Under the pieces are notes generated by a model, which saw only the letters and a program-made list of their open reading frames with translations, had not been told where the DNA came from and ran no database searches. The translations under genes and the position numbers were made by a program. Shown here piece after piece: positions 14,029 to 23,728 of a DNA stretch of 32,000 nucleotides. The stretch lies in assembly GCF_003231495.1 (NCBI RefSeq), contig NZ_PQWO01000011.1, positions 120,001-152,000 on the forward strand. The letters are read 5' to 3'. Numbering within the stretch: position 1 is the stretch's first letter; the number at the start of each line of letters is the position of its first letter. This DNA comes from Acaryochloris thomasi RCC1774. GTDB taxonomy: Bacteria; Cyanobacteriota; Cyanobacteriia; Thermosynechococcales; Thermosynechococcaceae.

Positions 14029-14274
14029 ATGAGTCTTGTAATTCCTGATGACATCCTCCAATCTACTCAGATGACCGAGGGTGAATTAAAGCTAGAAATT
14101 GCCATAATGCTGTACAAGCAGCAGAAAGTCAGCAGTGGCAAGGTTCGTGCCTGGACAGGGCTAACAGTGATTGAGTTCCAGCACGAATTAAAGGAGCGAG
14201 GACTTTACGCAAATTATGATGTAGAAGATTTTCAGTCAGATATGAGAACTTTGCAATCAAACGGTTTGCTTTGA
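14029..14274 (+). CDS. UPF0175-family antitoxin-like protein
   Basis: 81-aa ORF. LKLEIAIMLYKQQKVSSGKVRAWTGLTVIEFQHELKERGL matches the UPF0175 pattern as I recall it (...lYeegklSlgkaA...eF...L.erGi). Its stop overlaps the start of the next gene (TTGA at 14271-14274). Confidence 0.7.
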   Translation: MSLVIPDDILQSTQMTEGELKLEIAIMLYKQQKVSSGKVRAWTGLTVIEFQHELKERGLYANYDVEDFQSDMRTLQSNGLL

Positions 14275-14768
14275 TCATCGTTAGTGATACTTCACCGATT
14301 ACCAATTTGGCAGCGATCGATCAATTGGATTTGTTGCATCAACTCTATGGTTCCATCGTTATTCCGACAGCCGTTTACAACGAAATGGTTGCTGTGGATA
14401 AAGTTGTTCCGGGTGCCCTTGAAGTTCAGACCTTAAGTTGGATTCAGATGCAGGCCGTTGGTAACACCCGAAGCGTTGCTGATCTTCAAGTTAATCAAGA
14501 TGCGATTGATTTAGGTGAAGCTGAAGCAATTATCCTGACACAGGAACTCAACGCTGACTTACTCCTGATGGATGAACGACGTGGCAGAACGCTAGCGATC
14601 GCTTATGGTCTCAATGTGATAGGCCTTTTAGGCATTTTGCTGCAGGCTAAATCTAAAGGCTTGATTCCCACTGTTAGGCCCGTAATGGATCAGTTAGTTG
14701 ATGTGGCAAATTTCCGGGTGAGTACTCAGCTGTATGCAACGGTTCTACGAACGGCTAGAGAGTCGTGA
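14271..14768 (+). CDS. DUF3368-family PIN-like protein (putative toxin of the pair)
   Basis: 165-aa ORF with a TTG start overlapping the upstream stop. The N-terminus IIVSDTSPITNLAAIDQLDLLHQLYG and later GEAEAI are characteristic of DUF3368 (PIN-like), the usual partner of UPF0175. Confidence 0.7.
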   Translation: MIIVSDTSPITNLAAIDQLDLLHQLYGSIVIPTAVYNEMVAVDKVVPGALEVQTLSWIQMQAVGNTRSVADLQVNQDAIDLGEAEAIILTQELNADLLLMDERRGRTLAIAYGLNVIGLLGILLQAKSKGLIPTVRPVMDQLVDVANFRVSTQLYATVLRTARES

Positions 14769-15466: not shown

Positions 15467-15689
15467 TCACTCGATTTAAAGCTTTCCCAGAGCAACCATA
15501 GACTATGAAACTGACTCTGTACAATTTCTGAATGCAGAAGAATTTTGATCTTGGCGGTTTAAGGGTTCACTCACTGAAAGACCTGAAAAAATCCGATTGC
15601 GGCAGTCGCGCTTGTCCTCCACACTAAAAGCAGCCAAGTTTAGGCCCTGGCTGCTTGGCACAGATAAGGTGTATCGGTCAGAGGTGACG

Positions 15690-17048
15690 ATGAATGGAAG
15701 CGCAGATTTAATGCATGAACAGCTCATTGAAGCTGCGAATCGGGCTATCTTCCAGTGCGATCAAGAGTATTTGAGAACCATCGAGGTAGACGTGCTGGCA
15801 GAATGCTTGGCAGGCCTGACCTACGAGACAATGGCCGAGAGACTAAACTACTCTGCCCGCTTTATTGCGGCGGATGTTGCCCCGAAGCTCTTTATCAAGC
15901 TCACCAGAGCTACGGGCGAAAAGGTCAGGAAAGTGACGTTGAGAGAGGCTTTGAAGCGGCTTCTTAAACAGCAGTCCGCTCCAGAAAAATCACTGAAAAC
16001 GTCACCGCTGGCCTATCGCCCCTATCCCGAGGGACCCGTTCCGCTCAGTTCGACTTTTTATATCAAGCGATCAGAGATCGAGAGCCATTGCTGTCAGGTT
16101 GTAATCAATCCAAGTACTTTAATTCGCATTAAGGCAGCCAAAGGGATGGGGAAAACCTCCCTGGTGAATCGGATCTTGCAATATGCCGAGATTTATCAAC
16201 ATCAGACCGCTTATTTGGACTGTCAGTCGTCGAGTCAGGCATCGCTCAAAGATTTAGAGCGATTTTTGCAGTGGCTCTGTCTCCAGATTGGACGACAACT
16301 GAAGCTAGAGAATAAGCTAGCCGATTATTGGGATTCAGAGCTACTGACTAGCATCGATAACTGCAGTCAATATTTTGAAGACTATCTGCTGCCCAGTACT
16401 GAGGAACCCCTTGTCCTTGCGCTAGATAGTGTTGAACAGATTTTCCCCTACCCCGATGTGGCGGGCGATGTGCTGAGGATGCTCAGGAGCTGGCACGAGA
16501 AGTCGAAAAGCTCACCGCTTTGGGAAAAGCTGCGGCTAGTAATTACCCATGCCACAGAAGACTATGTCTCTCTGGATATCAATCACTCACCCCTCACCAA
16601 CGTAGGAGAACCCATCTCTTTGGACCGGTTTACATCGGAACAGGTTCAGGAATTAGCGGAGCGGTATGAACTGCAGTGGCAGACGCAGCAAATCGAAAGT
16701 CTGCAGAAGCGGGTAGGAGGACATCCCTATCTGATTCATTTGGCAATTTACAAAAGTGCAGTTGAACAGATGTCTCTCCAGCATATTTTGGAGGCCTCAG
16801 ATCAAGAGACAGGAATTTACTTTAGCCACCTCTTAAGGCTGCGGGAAGAGCTGCTGCAGTCACAGGATTTAGCTGCTGCGTATGGTGAGATCGCAAACTC
16901 CCCCACCGGCATAGAACTCAACTCACTGCAGATCTACCACCTCCAGAGTCTTGGCCTAGTGAAGCTAACCGGAAATCTAGTGCTGCCGTCCTGCAGTCTC
17001 TATCAGCAGTACTTCCAGCGAGAATTAGGTCGTGATGCCGTCACGTAG
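15690..17048 (+). CDS. HTH-like N-terminal domain + AAA_35/STAND-like P-loop NTPase (Walker B acid degenerate)
   Basis: The ORF-track start at 15597 is TTG. The ATG at 15690 is preceded by GAGGTG (15681-15686). The N-terminal module VLAECLAGLTYETMAERLNYSARFIAADVAPKLFIKLTRATGEKVRKVTLREAL is the HTH-like head seen on many cyanobacterial NTPase/WD40 proteins. Walker A is AAKGMGKTS (16134-16160). The Walker B strand is PLVLALDSVE, with D-S at 16425-16430 instead of D-E. It also has the SPLTNVG and GGHPYL (STAND GxP-type) motifs. Confidence 0.75.
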   Translation: MNGSADLMHEQLIEAANRAIFQCDQEYLRTIEVDVLAECLAGLTYETMAERLNYSARFIAADVAPKLFIKLTRATGEKVRKVTLREALKRLLKQQSAPEKSLKTSPLAYRPYPEGPVPLSSTFYIKRSEIESHCCQVVINPSTLIRIKAAKGMGKTSLVNRILQYAEIYQHQTAYLDCQSSSQASLKDLERFLQWLCLQIGRQLKLENKLADYWDSELLTSIDNCSQYFEDYLLPSTEEPLVLALDSVEQIFPYPDVAGDVLRMLRSWHEKSKSSPLWEKLRLVITHATEDYVSLDINHSPLTNVGEPISLDRFTSEQVQELAERYELQWQTQQIESLQKRVGGHPYLIHLAIYKSAVEQMSLQHILEASDQETGIYFSHLLRLREELLQSQDLAAAYGEIANSPTGIELNSLQIYHLQSLGLVKLTGNLVLPSCSLYQQYFQRELGRDAVT

Positions 17049-19644
17049 TCGCTCTCTCGGAGACTCACCCCCTGACTATCGCTACCAAGTTGGGGGCAGC
17101 CTGCCCGTCAATGCCCCTAGCTACGTTACCCGAGCCAGCGATTTCACCTTCTATGAGCAGTTGCAGAAGGGAGAATTTTGCTACGTCCTCAATTCTCGCC
17201 AGATGGGTAAATCCAGCTTGCGAGTTCAAACGATGCAGAAGCTGCGAGAGGAAGGTGTTGTTTGTGCCGCGATCGACCTCACAGGGTTTGGGACCCAGGG
17301 CATCACACCCGAAAAATGGTACGGCGGTTTTATCAAAGCCCTGGTGAGCGACTGTCAGTTAGAGCTGAACTGGCGAACCTGGTGGAAACAGCAGGATCCA
17401 GCTACCCCGGTCCAGCGATTGCATACGTTTATTGATGAGGTTCTACTACAGGATATTCAGCAAAACGTTGTCATTTTTATTGATGAAATTGACCAGATTC
17501 TGAGCCAAGATGTCTCTGCCGATGATTTTCTATCACTGATTCGGTTTTTCTACAATCAGCGTGTGGATCGGCCCGCCTATCAACGGATCACCTTTGCGCT
17601 GCTGGGTGTGGCAACGCCTTCGGCTCTGATGCAGGATCACGAGCGGACGCCCTTCAATATTGGCAAAGCTATCTATCTGGAAGGCTTTCAGTTCCAGGAG
17701 GCGATGCCGCTTGCCGATGGTCTTCGCGGTAAAGTTCAAGATCCAGATCAGGTGCTGCAAAATATTTTGGACTGGACCGGAGGACAGCCCTTCCTGACGC
17801 AAAAGCTCTGTCAACAGATGGAGGCAGCCGTTAAAGTTAATCCTGACATCACGGTGGACCAGGTCGTCCAAACACAGATCCTTGATAACTGGGAATCTCA
17901 AGATGAACCCGTGCATCTGAGAACGATTTGCGATCGCATCCTCTTCAACAAACGCAAATCGGTCCAGCTTTTGGGCCTTTATCAAAGGGTATATGGCGGA
18001 AACGTCTCAACGAAAAGCAGCCCTGAGCAAATCGAGCTGCGGCTCTCAGGCCTCGTTAAAGACCACGACGGAATCCTTCAAGTTTATAACCGCATCTATC
18101 ATCAAATCTTTAACCAACAATGGATCCAGAAAACGCTCCTTGAACTCCGCCCCTACGCAGCGGCCTTTGATGTTTGGGAGCAATCCCAAGCTCGACCAGA
18201 CAAGCTCCTGGAGGGTAGGGCATTAAAACAAGCCCTCAACTGGGCCGTCGGCAAAAGCCTCAGCGATCGCGACTATGACTTTATCCGGCTCAGCCAGGTC
18301 AAAGCAGAACGGGAAAAACTGCAGCGCAATATCCTGATTCGCAACGTGCTGGCGGTTGTTGGATTGGGCGGCTTATTGATCGGCAGCATCCTTTGGGGAA
18401 GCGATCGCTGGCAGGTCGATCAGAACCAGCAAACCCTCTCGAAAATGAGGAGCCTGCATGAGCAAGTGGACCAGGCTAAAAGACAGAACCGTCAAGCCGA
18501 TGCCCTTTCCCTTGCTCTTCAATCCGGGAAAAAACTCAGTAACTTAGTCCAAGACCAACCGCTCACGACCTACCCCACAACGACACCGCTGCTGGATCTG
18601 CAGCAGCTTCTCAGCGATGAACGTCAGCCTAAACCTCCCACAGAAAACACGCGCTGGAATTTACAGGATCTCGAAGAAGAAGCGATCTGGGACTTAGATA
18701 TTAGCCCCGACGGAAACAGTATTGCCGTCTCCGGCTGGGGCAATACGGTCAGAGTGTTGCAGACGGATCTTCAAAAGCAACTGACCCACAAAGATTCAGA
18801 AATGGTGATCAGCACAGACTTCGATCCTCAAGGTGATCACATTGCAACGGCCTCTTTGAACGGTAACGTCACGCTTTGGTCTCTCTTCGGGCAGTCACTC
18901 CAATACTGGAATACAGAGCAAGAGGCCATTTGGAGCACTCGCTTTAGCCCCAGCGGACAAGTTCTCGCCACCGCTGGCTGGGATGGCACCGTTCGCCTCT
19001 GGGATCTGAAGGGCAGACAGCGCTTTCAGACCTCAAAAAAGCACAAAGGCCCCGTCAAAGACATTCGCTTTAGCCCTGATGGGGAATGGCTTGCCACCGC
19101 GGGAGAAGACGGCATCATTCGACTGTGGAAAGTCTGTTTAAGCCCCCAATGCCCGACAACTGACGGTTCTCAAACGCTGGGTCTCTACAAAAAATGGGAA
19201 GGACATCAAGGCTGGATTTGGAGCCTCGATATCAGTCCCGACAGCAAAGTGCTGGCTTCTGCTGGAGAAGACGGTCTGATTCGATTCTGGAATATCGACG
19301 TCCCTAACACCCCACCGAAACGATGGCGATACGGACAGGGCCGAATCACTCAAGTTCGCTTCAGCTCCGATGGACAGTGGTTAGCGATCAGTGGCTGGGA
19401 TGGGAGGGTGCAGATTCGCGATCGCAACGGCAGACTCTTTACCCAATGGCAGAGCAACCGCCCCGTCACCAGCCTCAGCTTCACCCCAGATCAGCAGACA
19501 ATCTTAGCTGGAACAATCATGGGGGACGTTCATCAATGGCCCGTCAGAAATCTGGAGCAGTTACTAAACGAAGGGTGTGAGCAGCTTCAAAGACTCGATC
19601 CACACCAGGCCACGAAGACTTGTTTAGAACAGGACTACCCTTAG
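17035..19644 (+). CDS. AAA_35/STAND-like P-loop NTPase + hydrophobic helix + 7-bladed WD40 beta-propeller
   Basis: GTG is at 17032 and ATG at 17035. The start overlaps the upstream gene, whose stop is at 17046-17048. The N-terminus YQVGGSLPVNAPSYVTRASD is followed by Walker A SRQMGKSS (17194-17217) and canonical Walker B VVIFIDEID (D-E at 17482-17487). It has TPFNIG and GGQPFL motifs. A hydrophobic segment NILIRNVLAVVGLGGLLIGSILWG lies at 18328-18399. Seven WD40-like blades follow (for example ATAGWDGTVRLWD, ATAGEDGIIRLWK, ASAGEDGLIRFWN) from about 18660 to 19580. Confidence 0.8.
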   Translation: MPSRSRSLGDSPPDYRYQVGGSLPVNAPSYVTRASDFTFYEQLQKGEFCYVLNSRQMGKSSLRVQTMQKLREEGVVCAAIDLTGFGTQGITPEKWYGGFIKALVSDCQLELNWRTWWKQQDPATPVQRLHTFIDEVLLQDIQQNVVIFIDEIDQILSQDVSADDFLSLIRFFYNQRVDRPAYQRITFALLGVATPSALMQDHERTPFNIGKAIYLEGFQFQEAMPLADGLRGKVQDPDQVLQNILDWTGGQPFLTQKLCQQMEAAVKVNPDITVDQVVQTQILDNWESQDEPVHLRTICDRILFNKRKSVQLLGLYQRVYGGNVSTKSSPEQIELRLSGLVKDHDGILQVYNRIYHQIFNQQWIQKTLLELRPYAAAFDVWEQSQARPDKLLEGRALKQALNWAVGKSLSDRDYDFIRLSQVKAEREKLQRNILIRNVLAVVGLGGLLIGSILWGSDRWQVDQNQQTLSKMRSLHEQVDQAKRQNRQADALSLALQSGKKLSNLVQDQPLTTYPTTTPLLDLQQLLSDERQPKPPTENTRWNLQDLEEEAIWDLDISPDGNSIAVSGWGNTVRVLQTDLQKQLTHKDSEMVISTDFDPQGDHIATASLNGNVTLWSLFGQSLQYWNTEQEAIWSTRFSPSGQVLATAGWDGTVRLWDLKGRQRFQTSKKHKGPVKDIRFSPDGEWLATAGEDGIIRLWKVCLSPQCPTTDGSQTLGLYKKWEGHQGWIWSLDISPDSKVLASAGEDGLIRFWNIDVPNTPPKRWRYGQGRITQVRFSSDGQWLAISGWDGRVQIRDRNGRLFTQWQSNRPVTSLSFTPDQQTILAGTIMGDVHQWPVRNLEQLLNEGCEQLQRLDPHQATKTCLEQDYP

Positions 19645-19676: not shown

Positions 19677-22600
19677 ATGAAGATCCTACACGGCACCTGG
19701 ATTCCAGACGCAGAGGTCGCTTTTGTCCAACACGGAGCCTTTTACCTATGGATCGAAACAACAGACCCACCGACTCAAAAGTCTAAACAAGCGAACAGCC
19801 ATCCACTGCAGTTGCCTGCAGCATCCTTTGCAGACTTTCTAAACCATGAGTTGGGCATCAAGATCCTTGATAGAGATCTAGAGAAGGCTATTGTTCAACG
19901 CTATTTCTTATTGCCGAGTACTTCTAAGGCCCCTCTCCCTTCCCTAGAACTCTCTCGCTACCTAGAACAAGACAGTTCTGAAACCTTTGAGTGGCAAACT
20001 TGGCAGGTCAACTGCTACACCGTCACGACCTACGACAAATCTGGGTCTCCCGTCAGCAATGTGATCAGGCTGCTCAATGAACTGCATTTTATTGCCCTCC
20101 ATAATCTTGCAGAGATTCAGCTCGGGGCCGATCTCCTGTTTTGGTATCACTATACCCAAGCCTTCAAGACCGTCATCCTGAAAGACCAATACATTCCAGC
20201 CCTGAAATATCAACAGGCCAATGCCTCGCCCAGCCGCAAAGAGAGGAGAACCAGGCGATCTAAAAGTACCAAAGCCTCTCAGCCAGAGCAGCAGACCATT
20301 GAACTCTACCCTGCCTGGGAAATTGTCAGCGAACAGTACGAGTCCACCATTGAACGATATTTAGATTCTATGCCCTTGGTCTGCGTCGCGGGTTTTGCGA
20401 CCCCTCCCGAGGCGCAGCAGTTCTATGACCGTGAAACAATACTGCGGCACTGTTCAGAATATCTGCTTCAGGACATTGTTACGCATACGCCCTCTGCCGC
20501 CAGCTTCGAGAAAAAAATTGCGGATACCCTCATCCATGACTGCATGTTCGCTGACCGCCACGGCAAGAACCATAACTGGGAGACCTATGAGCAGTGGCGA
20601 GGATGGCGCGATCGCATCCAACATACCCAAACCGCGATTCCCTTTAATCTTTGTTTTCAGCTTCAAGATCCTGCCAAAGCAGAAGACGCTTGGGAGTTAC
20701 AGTTTCTTGTCGCCCCCAAATCAGATCCCTCCAGACAGATCTCTCTGTTGGACTATTGGCGATTGAAACCTGAGCGCCAGGAAGATCTGCTCAAGCATGT
20801 CGGCGAGGGCTTTGAGCAACATCTGCTGCTCAATCTAGGTTATGCCGCTCGTATTTACCCCAAACTATGGCAGGGGTTAGAAACAGATCAGCCCACCCAT
20901 ATTTCTCTCTCTCTAGATATAGCCCTGGATTTTCTACAGGAAGCAGCCTGGGTGCTTGAAGCTGCTGGGTATAAGGTGATTGTGCCTGCTTGGTGGACGC
21001 CCCAAGGTAGGCAAAGAGCCAAGGTCAAGCTACGGGCCAAAGGCAAATCACTGTCCTCAGGTGAAGACAAAGCTAACAGCTATTTCTCCATTGAGAAACT
21101 GGTGCAGTACAAGTATGAGCTAGCGATTGGTGGCAAAAAAGTTTCTGAGCAGGAATGGTCAGAGCTGGTGCAGGCAAAATTTCCGTTAGTCCAGTTCCGA
21201 GGTCAGTGGCTCCATCTAGACCAGGACAAAATGCAGCAGATGCTGGAGTTCTGGAAAACACGGCAGGCCGAGAATCCCGAAATGTCGCTCCTAGAAATTA
21301 TGCGACTAGGGGCAGACGGAGGTGACGATCTCGAACTTGACTTTAACCGTGACCAAAGCTTGGCTGAGATGATGGCTAAGCTCCACGATAAGAGTCAACT
21401 GGACACCATCGCCGATCCCGAGCAGCTTCAAGGCACGCTGAGAGACTACCAAAAGCGAGGAGTGTCCTGGCTTCATTACCTTGAGCAGTTGGGTCTCAAT
21501 GGCTGCTTGGCTGATGACATGGGTCTAGGCAAAACCGTCCAGGTCATTGCCCGACTGGTCCAAGAGCGGGAACTGGCAGCACAGGAGAATCTCAAGGTAC
21601 CGCCAACGCTATTAATTGCACCCACCTCTGTTGTGGGGAACTGGCGACGGGAGATGCAGAAATTTGCGCCTCACCTAACGGCAATTGTCCATCATGGGGG
21701 CGAACGTGCCCAGGACAGCAAAGACTTTAAGGCAATGGTCCGCCAGAACGATCTGGTGATCACCTCTTTTACCCTGGCTCGCAAAGACAGCAAATTGCTC
21801 TCAGCGATTACGTGGCAGCGGGTGGTCTTAGACGAAGCCCAAAACATCAAAAACCCCAAGGCCGCGCAAACCAAAGCCATCTTGAAACTAAACGCCCAGC
21901 ATCGTCTTGCACTGACGGGAACCCCCGTAGAAAATCGACTCTTGGATCTGTGGTCAATTTTCAACTTCCTTAATCCGGGTTATCTAGGTAAACAGGCCCA
22001 GTTCCGCAAAAGCTTTGAAGTGCCGATTCAGAAACAAAATGACCGGGTTCAATCTGCTACTCTCAAAAAATTGGTGGAACCCTTCATTCTGCGCCGCATG
22101 AAGACAGACAAATCAATCATCAAGGATCTACCCGATAAGGTCGAGCAAAAGCTCTACTGTAATCTCACAAAAGAGCAAGCCTCTCTCTATGAAGCCGTTG
22201 TCAAAGAAGTCGCAGGAGAACTTGATGAGCTAGACGGCATTCAGCGAAAAGGCATGATCCTCTCCACGCTGATGAAGCTCAAGCAAATCTGTAACCATCC
22301 GCGTCAGTTTCTTCAGGATGAAAGTGACTTCATTCCCGAGCGATCGCATAAGCTCGGTCGGCTGACAGAGATGATCACTGAGGCCATTGATGAAGGAGAA
22401 AGTCTACTCGTCTTTACCCAGTTCACTGAGCTGGGGGATGCGCTGCAAAAATATATTAGTAAGACTCAACACTACAAGACCTACTACATCCACGGTGGAA
22501 CCAGCCGCAATAAGCGCGAACAGATGATCTCAGAATTCCAAGACCCAGAAACGGAACCCTCGGTGTTTATCCTTTCCCTTAAAGCAGGCGGCGTCGGCAT

Positions 22601-22886
22601 CACCCTCACAAAAGCCAACCACGTCTTCCACTTTGACCGCTGGTGGAACCCTGCCGTCGAGGATCAAGCCACCGATCGCGCCTTCCGCATTGGGCAAAAA
22701 AAGAATGTCTTCGTTCACAAGTTTGTGGCGATGGGGACTTTGGAAGAACGCATCGACGAAATGATTGAAGATAAAAAGAGATTAGCGGGTTCCATTGTCG
22801 GATCTGATGAGTCTTGGCTAACGGAGCTAGATAACGAAGCATTTAAGAAATTGATTGCCCTCAACAAAACCGCCATTTTGGAGTGA
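19677..22886 (+). CDS. SNF2-family DNA-dependent ATPase/translocase (bacterial YwqA/HelZ-like, with SNF2-associated N-terminal region)
   Basis: The ORF-track start at 19620 is TTG and overlaps the upstream gene. The ATG at 19677 gives MKILHGTWIPD, a typical N-terminus of this family. Helicase motifs are LADDMGLGKT (I), LDEAQNIKN (II), ALTGTPVEN (III) and ATDRAFRIGQKKNV (VI). The upstream region FLQEAAWVLEAAGYKVIVPAWW is typical of the bacterial SNF2-associated domain. Confidence 0.92.
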   Translation: MKILHGTWIPDAEVAFVQHGAFYLWIETTDPPTQKSKQANSHPLQLPAASFADFLNHELGIKILDRDLEKAIVQRYFLLPSTSKAPLPSLELSRYLEQDSSETFEWQTWQVNCYTVTTYDKSGSPVSNVIRLLNELHFIALHNLAEIQLGADLLFWYHYTQAFKTVILKDQYIPALKYQQANASPSRKERRTRRSKSTKASQPEQQTIELYPAWEIVSEQYESTIERYLDSMPLVCVAGFATPPEAQQFYDRETILRHCSEYLLQDIVTHTPSAASFEKKIADTLIHDCMFADRHGKNHNWETYEQWRGWRDRIQHTQTAIPFNLCFQLQDPAKAEDAWELQFLVAPKSDPSRQISLLDYWRLKPERQEDLLKHVGEGFEQHLLLNLGYAARIYPKLWQGLETDQPTHISLSLDIALDFLQEAAWVLEAAGYKVIVPAWWTPQGRQRAKVKLRAKGKSLSSGEDKANSYFSIEKLVQYKYELAIGGKKVSEQEWSELVQAKFPLVQFRGQWLHLDQDKMQQMLEFWKTRQAENPEMSLLEIMRLGADGGDDLELDFNRDQSLAEMMAKLHDKSQLDTIADPEQLQGTLRDYQKRGVSWLHYLEQLGLNGCLADDMGLGKTVQVIARLVQERELAAQENLKVPPTLLIAPTSVVGNWRREMQKFAPHLTAIVHHGGERAQDSKDFKAMVRQNDLVITSFTLARKDSKLLSAITWQRVVLDEAQNIKNPKAAQTKAILKLNAQHRLALTGTPVENRLLDLWSIFNFLNPGYLGKQAQFRKSFEVPIQKQNDRVQSATLKKLVEPFILRRMKTDKSIIKDLPDKVEQKLYCNLTKEQASLYEAVVKEVAGELDELDGIQRKGMILSTLMKLKQICNHPRQFLQDESDFIPERSHKLGRLTEMITEAIDEGESLLVFTQFTELGDALQKYISKTQHYKTYYIHGGTSRNKREQMISEFQDPETEPSVFILSLKAGGVGITLTKANHVFHFDRWWNPAVEDQATDRAFRIGQKKNVFVHKFVAMGTLEERIDEMIEDKKRLAGSIVGSDESWLTELDNEAFKKLIALNKTAILE

Positions 22887-22891
22887 TCGTC

Positions 22892-23728
22892 ATGGCTCAA
22901 TTTAGTCGCACTTGGTGGGGACAGCGGTTCATCGCAGCCCTAGAGAGATTAGTCGATCCCGGTCGTCTCAGTCGTGGTCGCTCCTATGCACGGGGGGGCA
23001 AGGTTAAAAGTTTCAGGATTAAGAAGGGTTTGGTCACGGCTGAAGTTCGCGGCTCTGTTAATCCCTATTTCGGAGTCTATAAGGAACCGCTCTACATCAC
23101 CACTATTGAATTCCAGTCGATTAGTAAAGCAAACTGGGCGGCAGCGATTGCCTATGTGGCCTCTAAAGCTAGCTTACTTTCGCGCCTAATGCTCAACGAA
23201 ATTCCTGACAACATTGACGATGCATTTGCCAAGCTAGATTTGCATCTGCTGCCAGACAGTGAATCAGATTTCACCACCACCTGCTCATGCCCAGACTGGA
23301 GCAATCCCTGCAAGCATATTGCTGGGGTTCATTACTTAATTGCCAAAGAGCTAGATAATGATCCGTTTTTGTTGTTTGAGCTGAGGGGACTCTCTAGGGA
23401 TAACCTTAAAGCTGAGCTAGAGAAATCGCCACTGGGGCAGGCGCTCTCAGCCGAACTGGCGGCGCAGCAATCGACATCCGAACCCGACCCGACCTATTTC
23501 ACGCAGCCTAAAACACAAACAATAGAGACCCCAGACCTCAAGGAATTTTGGCAGGGGACCAAACGGTTACCCCAGACGCTTGAGCCATTGCCACCGGCCA
23601 CAGTGCCTGCAGTCTTGATCAAAAAGCAGGGAGACTATCCGGCCTTTTGGCCCAAGGACGGATCTTTTATTGCGGTGATGGAAGAACTCTATGAGCGAGT
23701 TAGAAATAAAAATTCAGGACTTCTCTGA
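22892..23728 (+). CDS. SWIM zinc-finger protein (partner of the SNF2 ATPase)
   Basis: The ATG at 22892 (MAQFSRTWWGQRFI) lies 5 nt after the SNF2 stop. An alternative GTG at 22883 overlaps that stop. The SWIM signature CxC-x6-CxH is CSCPDWSNPCKH (23282-23317). The N-terminal WWGQRF...RGRSYARGGKV is typical of stand-alone bacterial SWIM proteins encoded beside SNF2 genes. Confidence 0.87.
   Translation: MAQFSRTWWGQRFIAALERLVDPGRLSRGRSYARGGKVKSFRIKKGLVTAEVRGSVNPYFGVYKEPLYITTIEFQSISKANWAAAIAYVASKASLLSRLMLNEIPDNIDDAFAKLDLHLLPDSESDFTTTCSCPDWSNPCKHIAGVHYLIAKELDNDPFLLFELRGLSRDNLKAELEKSPLGQALSAELAAQQSTSEPDPTYFTQPKTQTIETPDLKEFWQGTKRLPQTLEPLPPATVPAVLIKKQGDYPAFWPKDGSFIAVMEELYERVRNKNSGLL

Follow-up and report, generated by a model that had tools for sequence, protein, structure and literature searches.

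Two overlapping genes of Acaryochloris thomasi RCC1774, which we call A and B, encode P-loop NTPases, and their arrangement raises the question of whether two such proteins work as partners and, if so, whether one of them has given up ATP hydrolysis. They lie on the forward strand of a 32,000-nucleotide stretch of the 5.9-Mb source assembly (contig C11, positions 120001-152000; hereafter the window), and the nearest named homologues come from Acaryochloris and Thermosynechococcaceae. An earlier note on this DNA had suggested that A is an ATP-binding but hydrolysis-impaired regulatory subunit that pairs with B, a hydrolysis-competent sensor subunit. We lean towards an answer in which the window pair is one copy of a conserved cyanobacterial two-gene module, with B as the receptor and A as the output subunit, and in which the module combines two subfamilies of the AAA_35 family of STAND/ORC-like NTPases that diverged long ago. 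The module is real, widespread and apparently uncharacterised: a literature search for AAA_35 pairs found no description, the founding STAND classification (Leipe et al. 2004) lying outside that search.

Gene A (15690-17048) codes for 452 residues from an ATG start and is made, in this order, of an N-terminal helix-turn-helix (HTH)-like domain and nucleotide-binding, helical and winged-helix domains. Gene B (17035-19644) codes for 869 residues, also from an ATG, arranged as NTPase, linker, hydrophobic helix and WD40 propeller. Both were defined by their open reading frames and translations. The overlap of 14 nucleotides reported for them is present as ATGCCGTCACGTAG (17035-17048), in which the ATG of B begins at 17035 and the stop codon of A, TAG, occupies 17046-17048; the sole alternative start candidate for B is a GTG at 17032. 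Both proteins match the Pfam family AAA_35 (PF14516; gathering cut-off 27 bits, model of 331 positions), A with 434 bits over model positions 1-330 and B with 114.5 bits over positions 4-330. Compared directly they share 21% identity across 255 residues (BLASTP E = 1e-10), and their family profiles align across 330 columns (hhalign probability 99.4%, E = 2.5e-21). The two are therefore paralogues of one NTPase family, as had been proposed from their common motifs, and deeply diverged ones.

To ask whether the two genes recur together, we scanned the source genome with PF14516, taking strong matches as type A and weak matches as type B. It holds four of each, and three A-B tandems, on contig C10, on contig C19 and in the window; one gene of each type stands solo (C4). 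Among 41 related genomes, the family was found in 33. A same-strand B match lies directly downstream of 50 of the 74 A-type matches in these 33 genomes, and the order is always A then B. We then classified the 74 A loci (70 from other genomes plus the four of the source genome) with subfamily hidden Markov models (HMMs), which sorted them into 43 tight pairs, 8 looser ones and 23 solo A genes; the two subfamilies are separable by HMM score in every genome. The junctions mostly range from -26 to +110 nucleotides, with at least 11 of the 43 tight pairs overlapping, and among the orthologous pairs those of genomes G013 and G003 share the -14 overlap of the window while that of G024 has -11. The co-occurrence in related genomes on which the proposed pairing depended is thus borne out, and in an ordered form.

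The partners have also changed together. Across the 43 tight pairs, pairwise A-A and B-B distances correlate with r = 0.85, whereas shuffling of partners within genomes gives a mean r of 0.29, and none of 2000 such permutations reaches 0.85. Since the correlation is unmatched by the shuffled sets, the sequence comparison indicates that the paralogous A/B pairs have diversified as units. Further, fusions exist: 150 non-redundant A representatives, clustered at 50% identity, include five B-A, two A-B and one A-A fusion proteins. Linkage, co-diversification and fusions are comparative signs of a functional, and probably physical, partnership between A and B.

The NTPase motifs are all present as the earlier note gave them. 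In A, Walker A reads GMGKTS (16143-16160; KGMGKTS with the preceding residue) and contains Lys155 and Thr156; its G and K are kept in 120/120 homologues and T or S follows in 120/120. Walker B reads LVLALD-S-V-E (16410-16436), with Asp246, Ser247 and Glu249, and the Ser at the position after the Asp (+1) is encoded by AGT at 16428-16430. In B, Walker A is SRQMGKSS (17194-17217), a motif of the RQMGK[ST]S type in 51/51 partners, and Walker B is VVIFIDEID (17467-17493), with Asp150, Glu151 and Asp153. Strand beta-4 of A ends in H-A-T-E in the sensor-1 region (16548-16559), and the GxP-type motif of the helical domain is GGHP in A (16716-16727) and GGQP in B. The shared core described for the two proteins, Y..G..P...Y(V/I).R, SP(F/L).N(I/V)G and GG(H/Q)P(Y/F)L, corresponds to conserved columns in both subfamilies.

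Everything said about the Ser depends on the strand on which it sits, and a misassignment of this strand had been named as a finding that would refute the proposal. In the AlphaFold2 model of A (predicted local distance difference test score, pLDDT, 89.9) LVLALD forms strand E241-246, where Walker B should lie, and in that of B (pLDDT 75.7) VVIFID forms strand E145-150; in the profile-profile alignment the columns of the two strands coincide. Because strand position and alignment place LALD-S and FID-E in register, we rejected a misassigned Walker B in A, and the original assignment is correct.

The models carry an ASCE-type P-loop core (strands E144-149 and E241-246 in A, E49-52 and E145-150 in B), followed by the helical domain and then a beta-hairpin 'wing' (E424-427/E430-433 in A, E341-344/E347-350 in B). 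The predicted structures thus show the STAND order of nucleotide-binding, GxP helical and winged-helix domains, and alignments of both subfamilies keep an H-L-[RK] motif whose His is a candidate MHD-like residue of the winged-helix domain. In a Foldseek search with the A model the best match was PABY2304 (2qen; E = 6.6e-9, TM 0.52/0.64), and other matches were NRC4, Sr35, Roq1, RPP1, ZAR1, ORC2/Cdc6, MalT, Avs3/Avs4 and CED-4. As modelled, the fold of A is the nucleotide-binding/helical/winged-helix module of STAND/ORC-like AAA+ proteins. A kinship with RecA/DnaB-like proteins was rejected, as it came from weak PDB sequence matches of about 40 residues covering the P-loop only and the fold search gives STAND/ORC relatives. 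Sequence searches detected no solved structure, NCBIfam had no match for A or B, and PADLOC defence-system models gave nothing significant for them. The Pfam scan of A gave no NACHT (PF05729) match and one marginal match to NPHP3_N (26.7 bits against a cut-off of 24.8), beneath the far stronger AAA_35.

The catalytic site is held very differently in the two subfamilies. Of 120 type-B homologues, 119 have the Walker B Asp, and the same number was counted for the +1 Glu and for the +3 Asp; the 51 B partners from the 33 genomes all carry [DE]E[IVL]D; their Walker A is RQMGKSS in 49, the other two having single conservative variants. The A partners of the same 51 genes are acidic at +1 in 26 cases and have replaced the Walker B Asp in 8. 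In 120 close A homologues, mostly HTH-bearing, the +1 residue is N in 45, E in 34, D in 21 and S in 11. Across 152 non-redundant A domains the Walker B Asp is retained in 90%, and 99% of A domains have an intact Walker A. A maximum-likelihood tree of 153 A domains calls for at least 30 changes at +1 between an acidic and a non-acidic residue, and for at least 10 losses of the Asp; type A looks ancestrally canonical. Ser at +1 is confined to the orthologous clade of window A, where it is fixed (11/11, down to 62% identity), and those members of this clade that could be placed share their contigs with B orthologues. An acidic +1 residue is found in 21/43 A genes of tight pairs and 14/23 solo A genes, and the Asp is lost in 8/51 paired and 0/23 solo A genes; the former is a weak trend and both come from small, related samples, so that neither is used here as evidence.

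A paralogue of A in the source genome has gone further than window A. This type-A gene on contig C19 (11391-13142; L002:1333-3084) encodes GKRS and LALSHVE, so that neither the Walker A Thr nor the Walker B Asp remains, and its product ends in a GGDEF diguanylate-cyclase domain. Its partner, which starts 3 nucleotides past the A stop, is a canonical B with WD40 repeats.

Outside the NTPase core, the two subfamilies carry different kinds of domain. The N-terminal helical domain of window A (residues 25-96; 15762-15977) is a putative HTH of the LuxR/sigma-70 region 4 kind, and its modelled helices (H30-40, H45-52 and H56-75) are compatible with a tri-helical HTH. Precomputed annotation of homologues assigns PF26355 to this domain, and one source names an A homologue 'vWA-MoxR associated protein N-terminal domain'. 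Two of 20 members of the N-domain family weakly match GerE (best 2.7e-4) and Sigma70_r4_2 (3.8e-4), with HTH_38 also weak; the N-domain of window A itself has no family match at E <= 0.01. Searched against the PDB, the N-domain profile gave weak matches to NarL-type response regulators (E ~0.7-0.8). An HTH fold is likely.

In other type-A proteins the output side is variable. Added domains, counted in 74 representatives with extra sequence, were TIR (17-20), protein kinase (10), CHAT (10), nucleotide cyclase (7), GGDEF (6), caspase (3) and receiver (3), besides EAD1/EAD4, trypsin and sigma-r4/GerE. The C-termini of type-B proteins are mostly WD40, CHASE2, periplasmic-binding-protein (PBP)-like or TPR domains, with some kinases and CobW-type GTPases and one trypsin+TIR. 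From these repertoires the labour looks split, with the effector or output on A, the sensor on B and a membrane between sensor and NTPase.

The membrane enters through a hydrophobic 19-mer of B, VLAVVGLGGLLIGSILWGS (residues 438-456; 18346-18402; Kyte-Doolittle mean 1.99), which is predicted to form a single transmembrane helix with the N-terminus inside. A comparable helix occurs in 91/120 B homologues, and its N-flank has 4.5 K/R residues where its C-flank has 2.2, with more on the N-flank in 84/91. The helix is followed in the window by a WD40 beta-propeller of about seven blades (18667-19554; Pfam WD40 E = 2.3e-50; modelled strands over residues 551-836). Since other B homologues carry CHASE2 or PBP domains, which are extracytoplasmic sensors, after the helix, the WD40 propeller of B is probably outside the cytoplasm too.

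We propose that the pair would work as follows. B would be a cytoplasmic NTPase with an invariant catalytic site, joined by its single membrane helix to a variable and probably extracytoplasmic sensor (WD40 here); A would be the same NTPase module with a variable output domain (the LuxR/sigma-r4-like HTH here) and evolutionarily labile catalytic positions. A signal at the sensor of B may drive nucleotide-dependent assembly of A and B into a hetero-oligomer, the assembly would cluster the HTH domains of A, which would bind DNA and switch transcription, and hydrolysis by B would reset the switch. A would bind nucleotide and, in the Ser-bearing lineage, would probably hydrolyse it slowly or not at all. 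Given the HTH as output, the window pair more probably signals through transcription than acts as a suicide system.

Several points weigh against this reading. Solo genes are common (23/74 A genes and 24/74 B genes, one of each in the source genome), so some members act unpaired or pair in trans. That A binds B is something we infer, and linkage with co-diversification could also arise between proteins that share a pathway but form no complex. The HTH assignment draws on sub-threshold matches, and the topology of B is a prediction from hydropathy and charge bias. As to catalysis, D or E occupies +1 in 70% of the 152 non-redundant A domains, DEVD being the commonest form; with about 70% of A lineages retaining the canonical DE pair, the system is not defined by a division into active and inactive partners. 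In window A, moreover, Glu249 (+3) or the A-specific Glu of HATE might serve as catalytic base. The proposed contrast of canonical and degenerate partner is thus real at the level of the family, where B is invariant and A variable at the catalytic-Glu position, and fails as a definition of type A. In the same way, the D-S substitution is conserved in the orthologues of window A but not in the wider HTH-bearing group, of which about 46% of near homologues are acidic at +1.

Genomes G011, G019 and G023 (loci L022, L023 and L026), small single-contig genomes of about 2.5 Mb from the same family, hold exactly one type-A and one type-B gene. The two genes are far apart rather than adjacent, so that pairing in trans may occur. 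Their type-A proteins have 860-925 residues, with a long N-terminal extension and DEVD; those of type B have about 1194.

The alternative that survives best keeps the pair and denies the asymmetry: both subunits would be active, the base of A being the +3 Asp/Glu or the Glu after the sensor-1 Thr, and variation at +1 would be neutral, making the Ser uninformative. Window A departs from the canonical site only at +1, with Lys155, Thr156, Asp246 and Glu249 all retained; the combined loss of Walker A Lys and Ser/Thr and of Walker B Asp that marks iSTAND-type (inactive STAND) proteins is not seen. The +3 position is acidic in 97% of near A homologues and 82% of the non-redundant A domains, and invariant in B as the last residue of DEID. 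Further, an acid in H[SA]TE follows the sensor-1 Thr in 148/152 A domains, where type B has GVATP and no acid; this acid might serve as another catalytic base or lie at an interface. The arrangement D-[small]-x-[acid] in Walker B is that of the NACHT type, and NACHT proteins hydrolyse ATP despite the small +1 residue; the D-S-V-E of window A matches it, as a likeness of pattern only. As Koonin and Aravind are said to have noted in 2000, NACHT NTPases have a small +1 residue and acids further downstream. On the other side, neither the +1 Glu nor the +3 Asp varies in B, so that +3 is no obvious substitute for +1 in this family, and in about 10% of A lineages the Mg-coordinating Asp or residues of Walker A are gone too, which points to genuinely relaxed catalysis in type A. 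We consider activity of both subunits rather unlikely. Given the retained Lys/Thr, Asp and near-invariant +3 acid in a NACHT-like pattern, however, loss of hydrolysis is not readable from sequence, and the description of A as hydrolysis-impaired was put too strongly: from the residues present, nucleotide binding is likely retained, and the chance that hydrolysis is impaired we would set slightly below even.

A more radical alternative gives up the partnership itself. A and B would be independent homo-oligomeric switches, and their adjacency a relic of tandem duplication. The solo A and solo B genes agree with this, and the A-A fusion and the tandem B-B proteins show that like can pair with like. 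But a relic would have to be an old one, the subfamilies being at 21% identity and HMM-separable in every genome, and yet the A-B order has been retained in 51 pairs across 33 genomes, with tight junctions, co-diversifying partners, A-B and B-A fusions and accessory domains that are complementary. We regard independent action as improbable.

The tandem B proteins take two forms. Some cyanobacterial proteins of other organisms, among P0126-P0141, have two complete type-B modules, with RQMGKSS and DEID intact in both, followed by a transmembrane helix. In P0143, P0148 and P0152 only the C-terminal half of the type-B module is repeated, three to five times.

The genes around the pair suggest a larger unit at first sight, since a SNF2 helicase of the DUF3670 type and then a SWIM zinc-finger protein lie directly 3' of B (19677-23728). 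A four-gene cassette of A, B, helicase and SWIM protein, coupling an NTPase sensor to a DNA translocase, is very improbable: the genes are co-directional, with a gap of 32 nucleotides between B and SNF2, a small overlap between SNF2 and SWIM and no terminator-like site above background, and the SNF2 protein resembles ZorD/DpdE-type defence helicases by PADLOC scores, but tblastn with SNF2 found no match 3' of any other A locus examined (73, among them the orthologous pairs of G013, G003 and G024), the other two pairs of the source genome have different neighbours, and SNF2 and SWIM form a self-standing pair. Since no SNF2 homologue lies beyond the other A loci, we do not count SNF2 and SWIM in the system formed by A and B.

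Upstream of A lies a divergent NlpC/P60 gene. Upstream of that, at 14029-14768, is a UPF0175/DUF3368 (PIN-like) pair with a 4-nucleotide overlap, a predicted type II toxin-antitoxin system. In the leader of A, a repeat search found the inverted repeat AAGCAGCCA-N11-TGGCTGCTT (15628-15656, forward strand), 34-62 nucleotides 5' of the start codon. A 7-bp hairpin in which one pair is fully compensated is common to five orthologous leaders, the stem being 7-9 bp overall, and upstream of the hairpin the block AAATCCGATTGC...CTTGTCCTCCACACT is kept among the five loci (leader 15575-15656 in the window). Block and hairpin may represent a promoter together with an RNA structure, or else an operator; promoter and terminator scans of the locus gave nothing above shuffled background.

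Among described systems, the closest published concept to the AAA_35 pair is the nSTAND2 two-gene system (Kaur et al. 2021, PMC8195603), a two-gene operon in which both products have STAND-type cores and are predicted to form a hetero-multimer, and in which one partner has eroded nucleotide-binding motifs and bears a variable effector domain. The likeness lies in the adjacent STAND gene pair with effectors on the eroding partner, which here is A; it is one of analogous architecture, not membership. The alignment row shown for nSTAND2 is without the GK[ST] P-loop, unlike A or B, and the strings QMGKSS and QMGKTS occur nowhere in the 26 supplementary files of that paper. Its effectors are mostly GT4 or HEPN and its listed hosts include Pseudomonas (PMC8195603). 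Here, by contrast, erosion is partial, lineage-specific and recurrent, with Walker A nearly always intact, and the partner B is predicted to be membrane-spanning with an external sensor. We compared text and supplements and rejected identity with nSTAND1, nSTAND2 or iSTAND, which are different sequence families. The iSTAND proteins of MoxR-vWA ternary systems are catalytically inactive STAND modules that serve as constant scaffolds, fused to effector or adaptor domains, and are enriched in cyanobacteria (Kaur et al. 2020, PMC7159879). Their setting is echoed in the vWA-MoxR-associated name attached to an A homologue. However, no MoxR or vWA genes lie beside the A/B pair, the nucleotide-binding residues of A are largely intact, and the partner of A is a paralogous NTPase rather than a chaperone pair.

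In ORC/Cdc6 and the clamp loaders, paralogous subunits of which only some hydrolyse ATP act together, as A and B would in principle, and ORC/Cdc6 proteins are among the best structural matches of A (1w5s/1w5t ORC2, 7jgr, 5uj7). Orc1/Cdc6 has a Walker B of the DE[IV]D type. The analogy with ORC-type mixed assemblies is also cited by Kaur et al. 2021 (PMC8195603). The AAA_35 proteins differ in being without a replication context, in their signalling and effector accessory domains and in consisting of two genes rather than five or six subunits. Paired NLRs, such as plant sensor/helper pairs and animal NAIP-NLRC4, are paralogous STAND proteins that divide sensing from execution, and one nucleotide site is often dispensable. 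They have TIR and caspase-like effectors in common with type A, and plant resistosomes are among its fold matches. In plant NLR pairs, though, the dispensable P-loop is usually that of the sensor, while in the present pair it is A, with the effector, that is labile, and the sensor B does not vary; and NLRs are cytosolic, whereas B is predicted to span the membrane. MalT (fold match 8bob) likewise couples a STAND NTPase to a LuxR/GerE-like HTH, but it is one polypeptide whose HTH is C-terminal and whose sensor is cytoplasmic, the HTH of A being N-terminal and on a chain separate from the sensor. Finally, PABY2304, an archaeal Walker-type ATPase of the ATPase_2 family (PF01637), resembles A as its best Foldseek match and through a weak Pfam cross-match; it is only 14% identical to A and comes from a single-gene archaeal family without the paired architecture.

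Switches of the STAND/NLR type have a central part in the immunity and cell death of animals, plants and bacteria, and how sensing, nucleotide turnover and execution are divided between paired members is an active question. With up to five pairs per genome in dozens of lineages, one ATPase site frozen and the other decaying repeatedly, the AAA_35 pairs are a natural replicated experiment on that division. For the window locus itself the consequences in practice are modest, since A and B are probably a sensor pair that regulates transcription. For the family, it is a tentative proposal, somewhat short of an even chance, that the AAA_35 A/B pairs are an undescribed class of split, membrane-spanning, NLR-like cyanobacterial receptors, in which an extracytoplasmic sensor sits on a catalytically invariant NTPase. 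With the same reserve we suggest that B would then co-assemble with its eroding paralogue A, whose output may be transcriptional (HTH), second-messenger (GGDEF, cyclase) or suicidal (TIR, CHAT/caspase). The predicted topology, a cytoplasmic NTPase joined by one membrane helix to an outside sensor, would be unusual for the class and, if true, would extend NLR-like signalling to extracytoplasmic cues.

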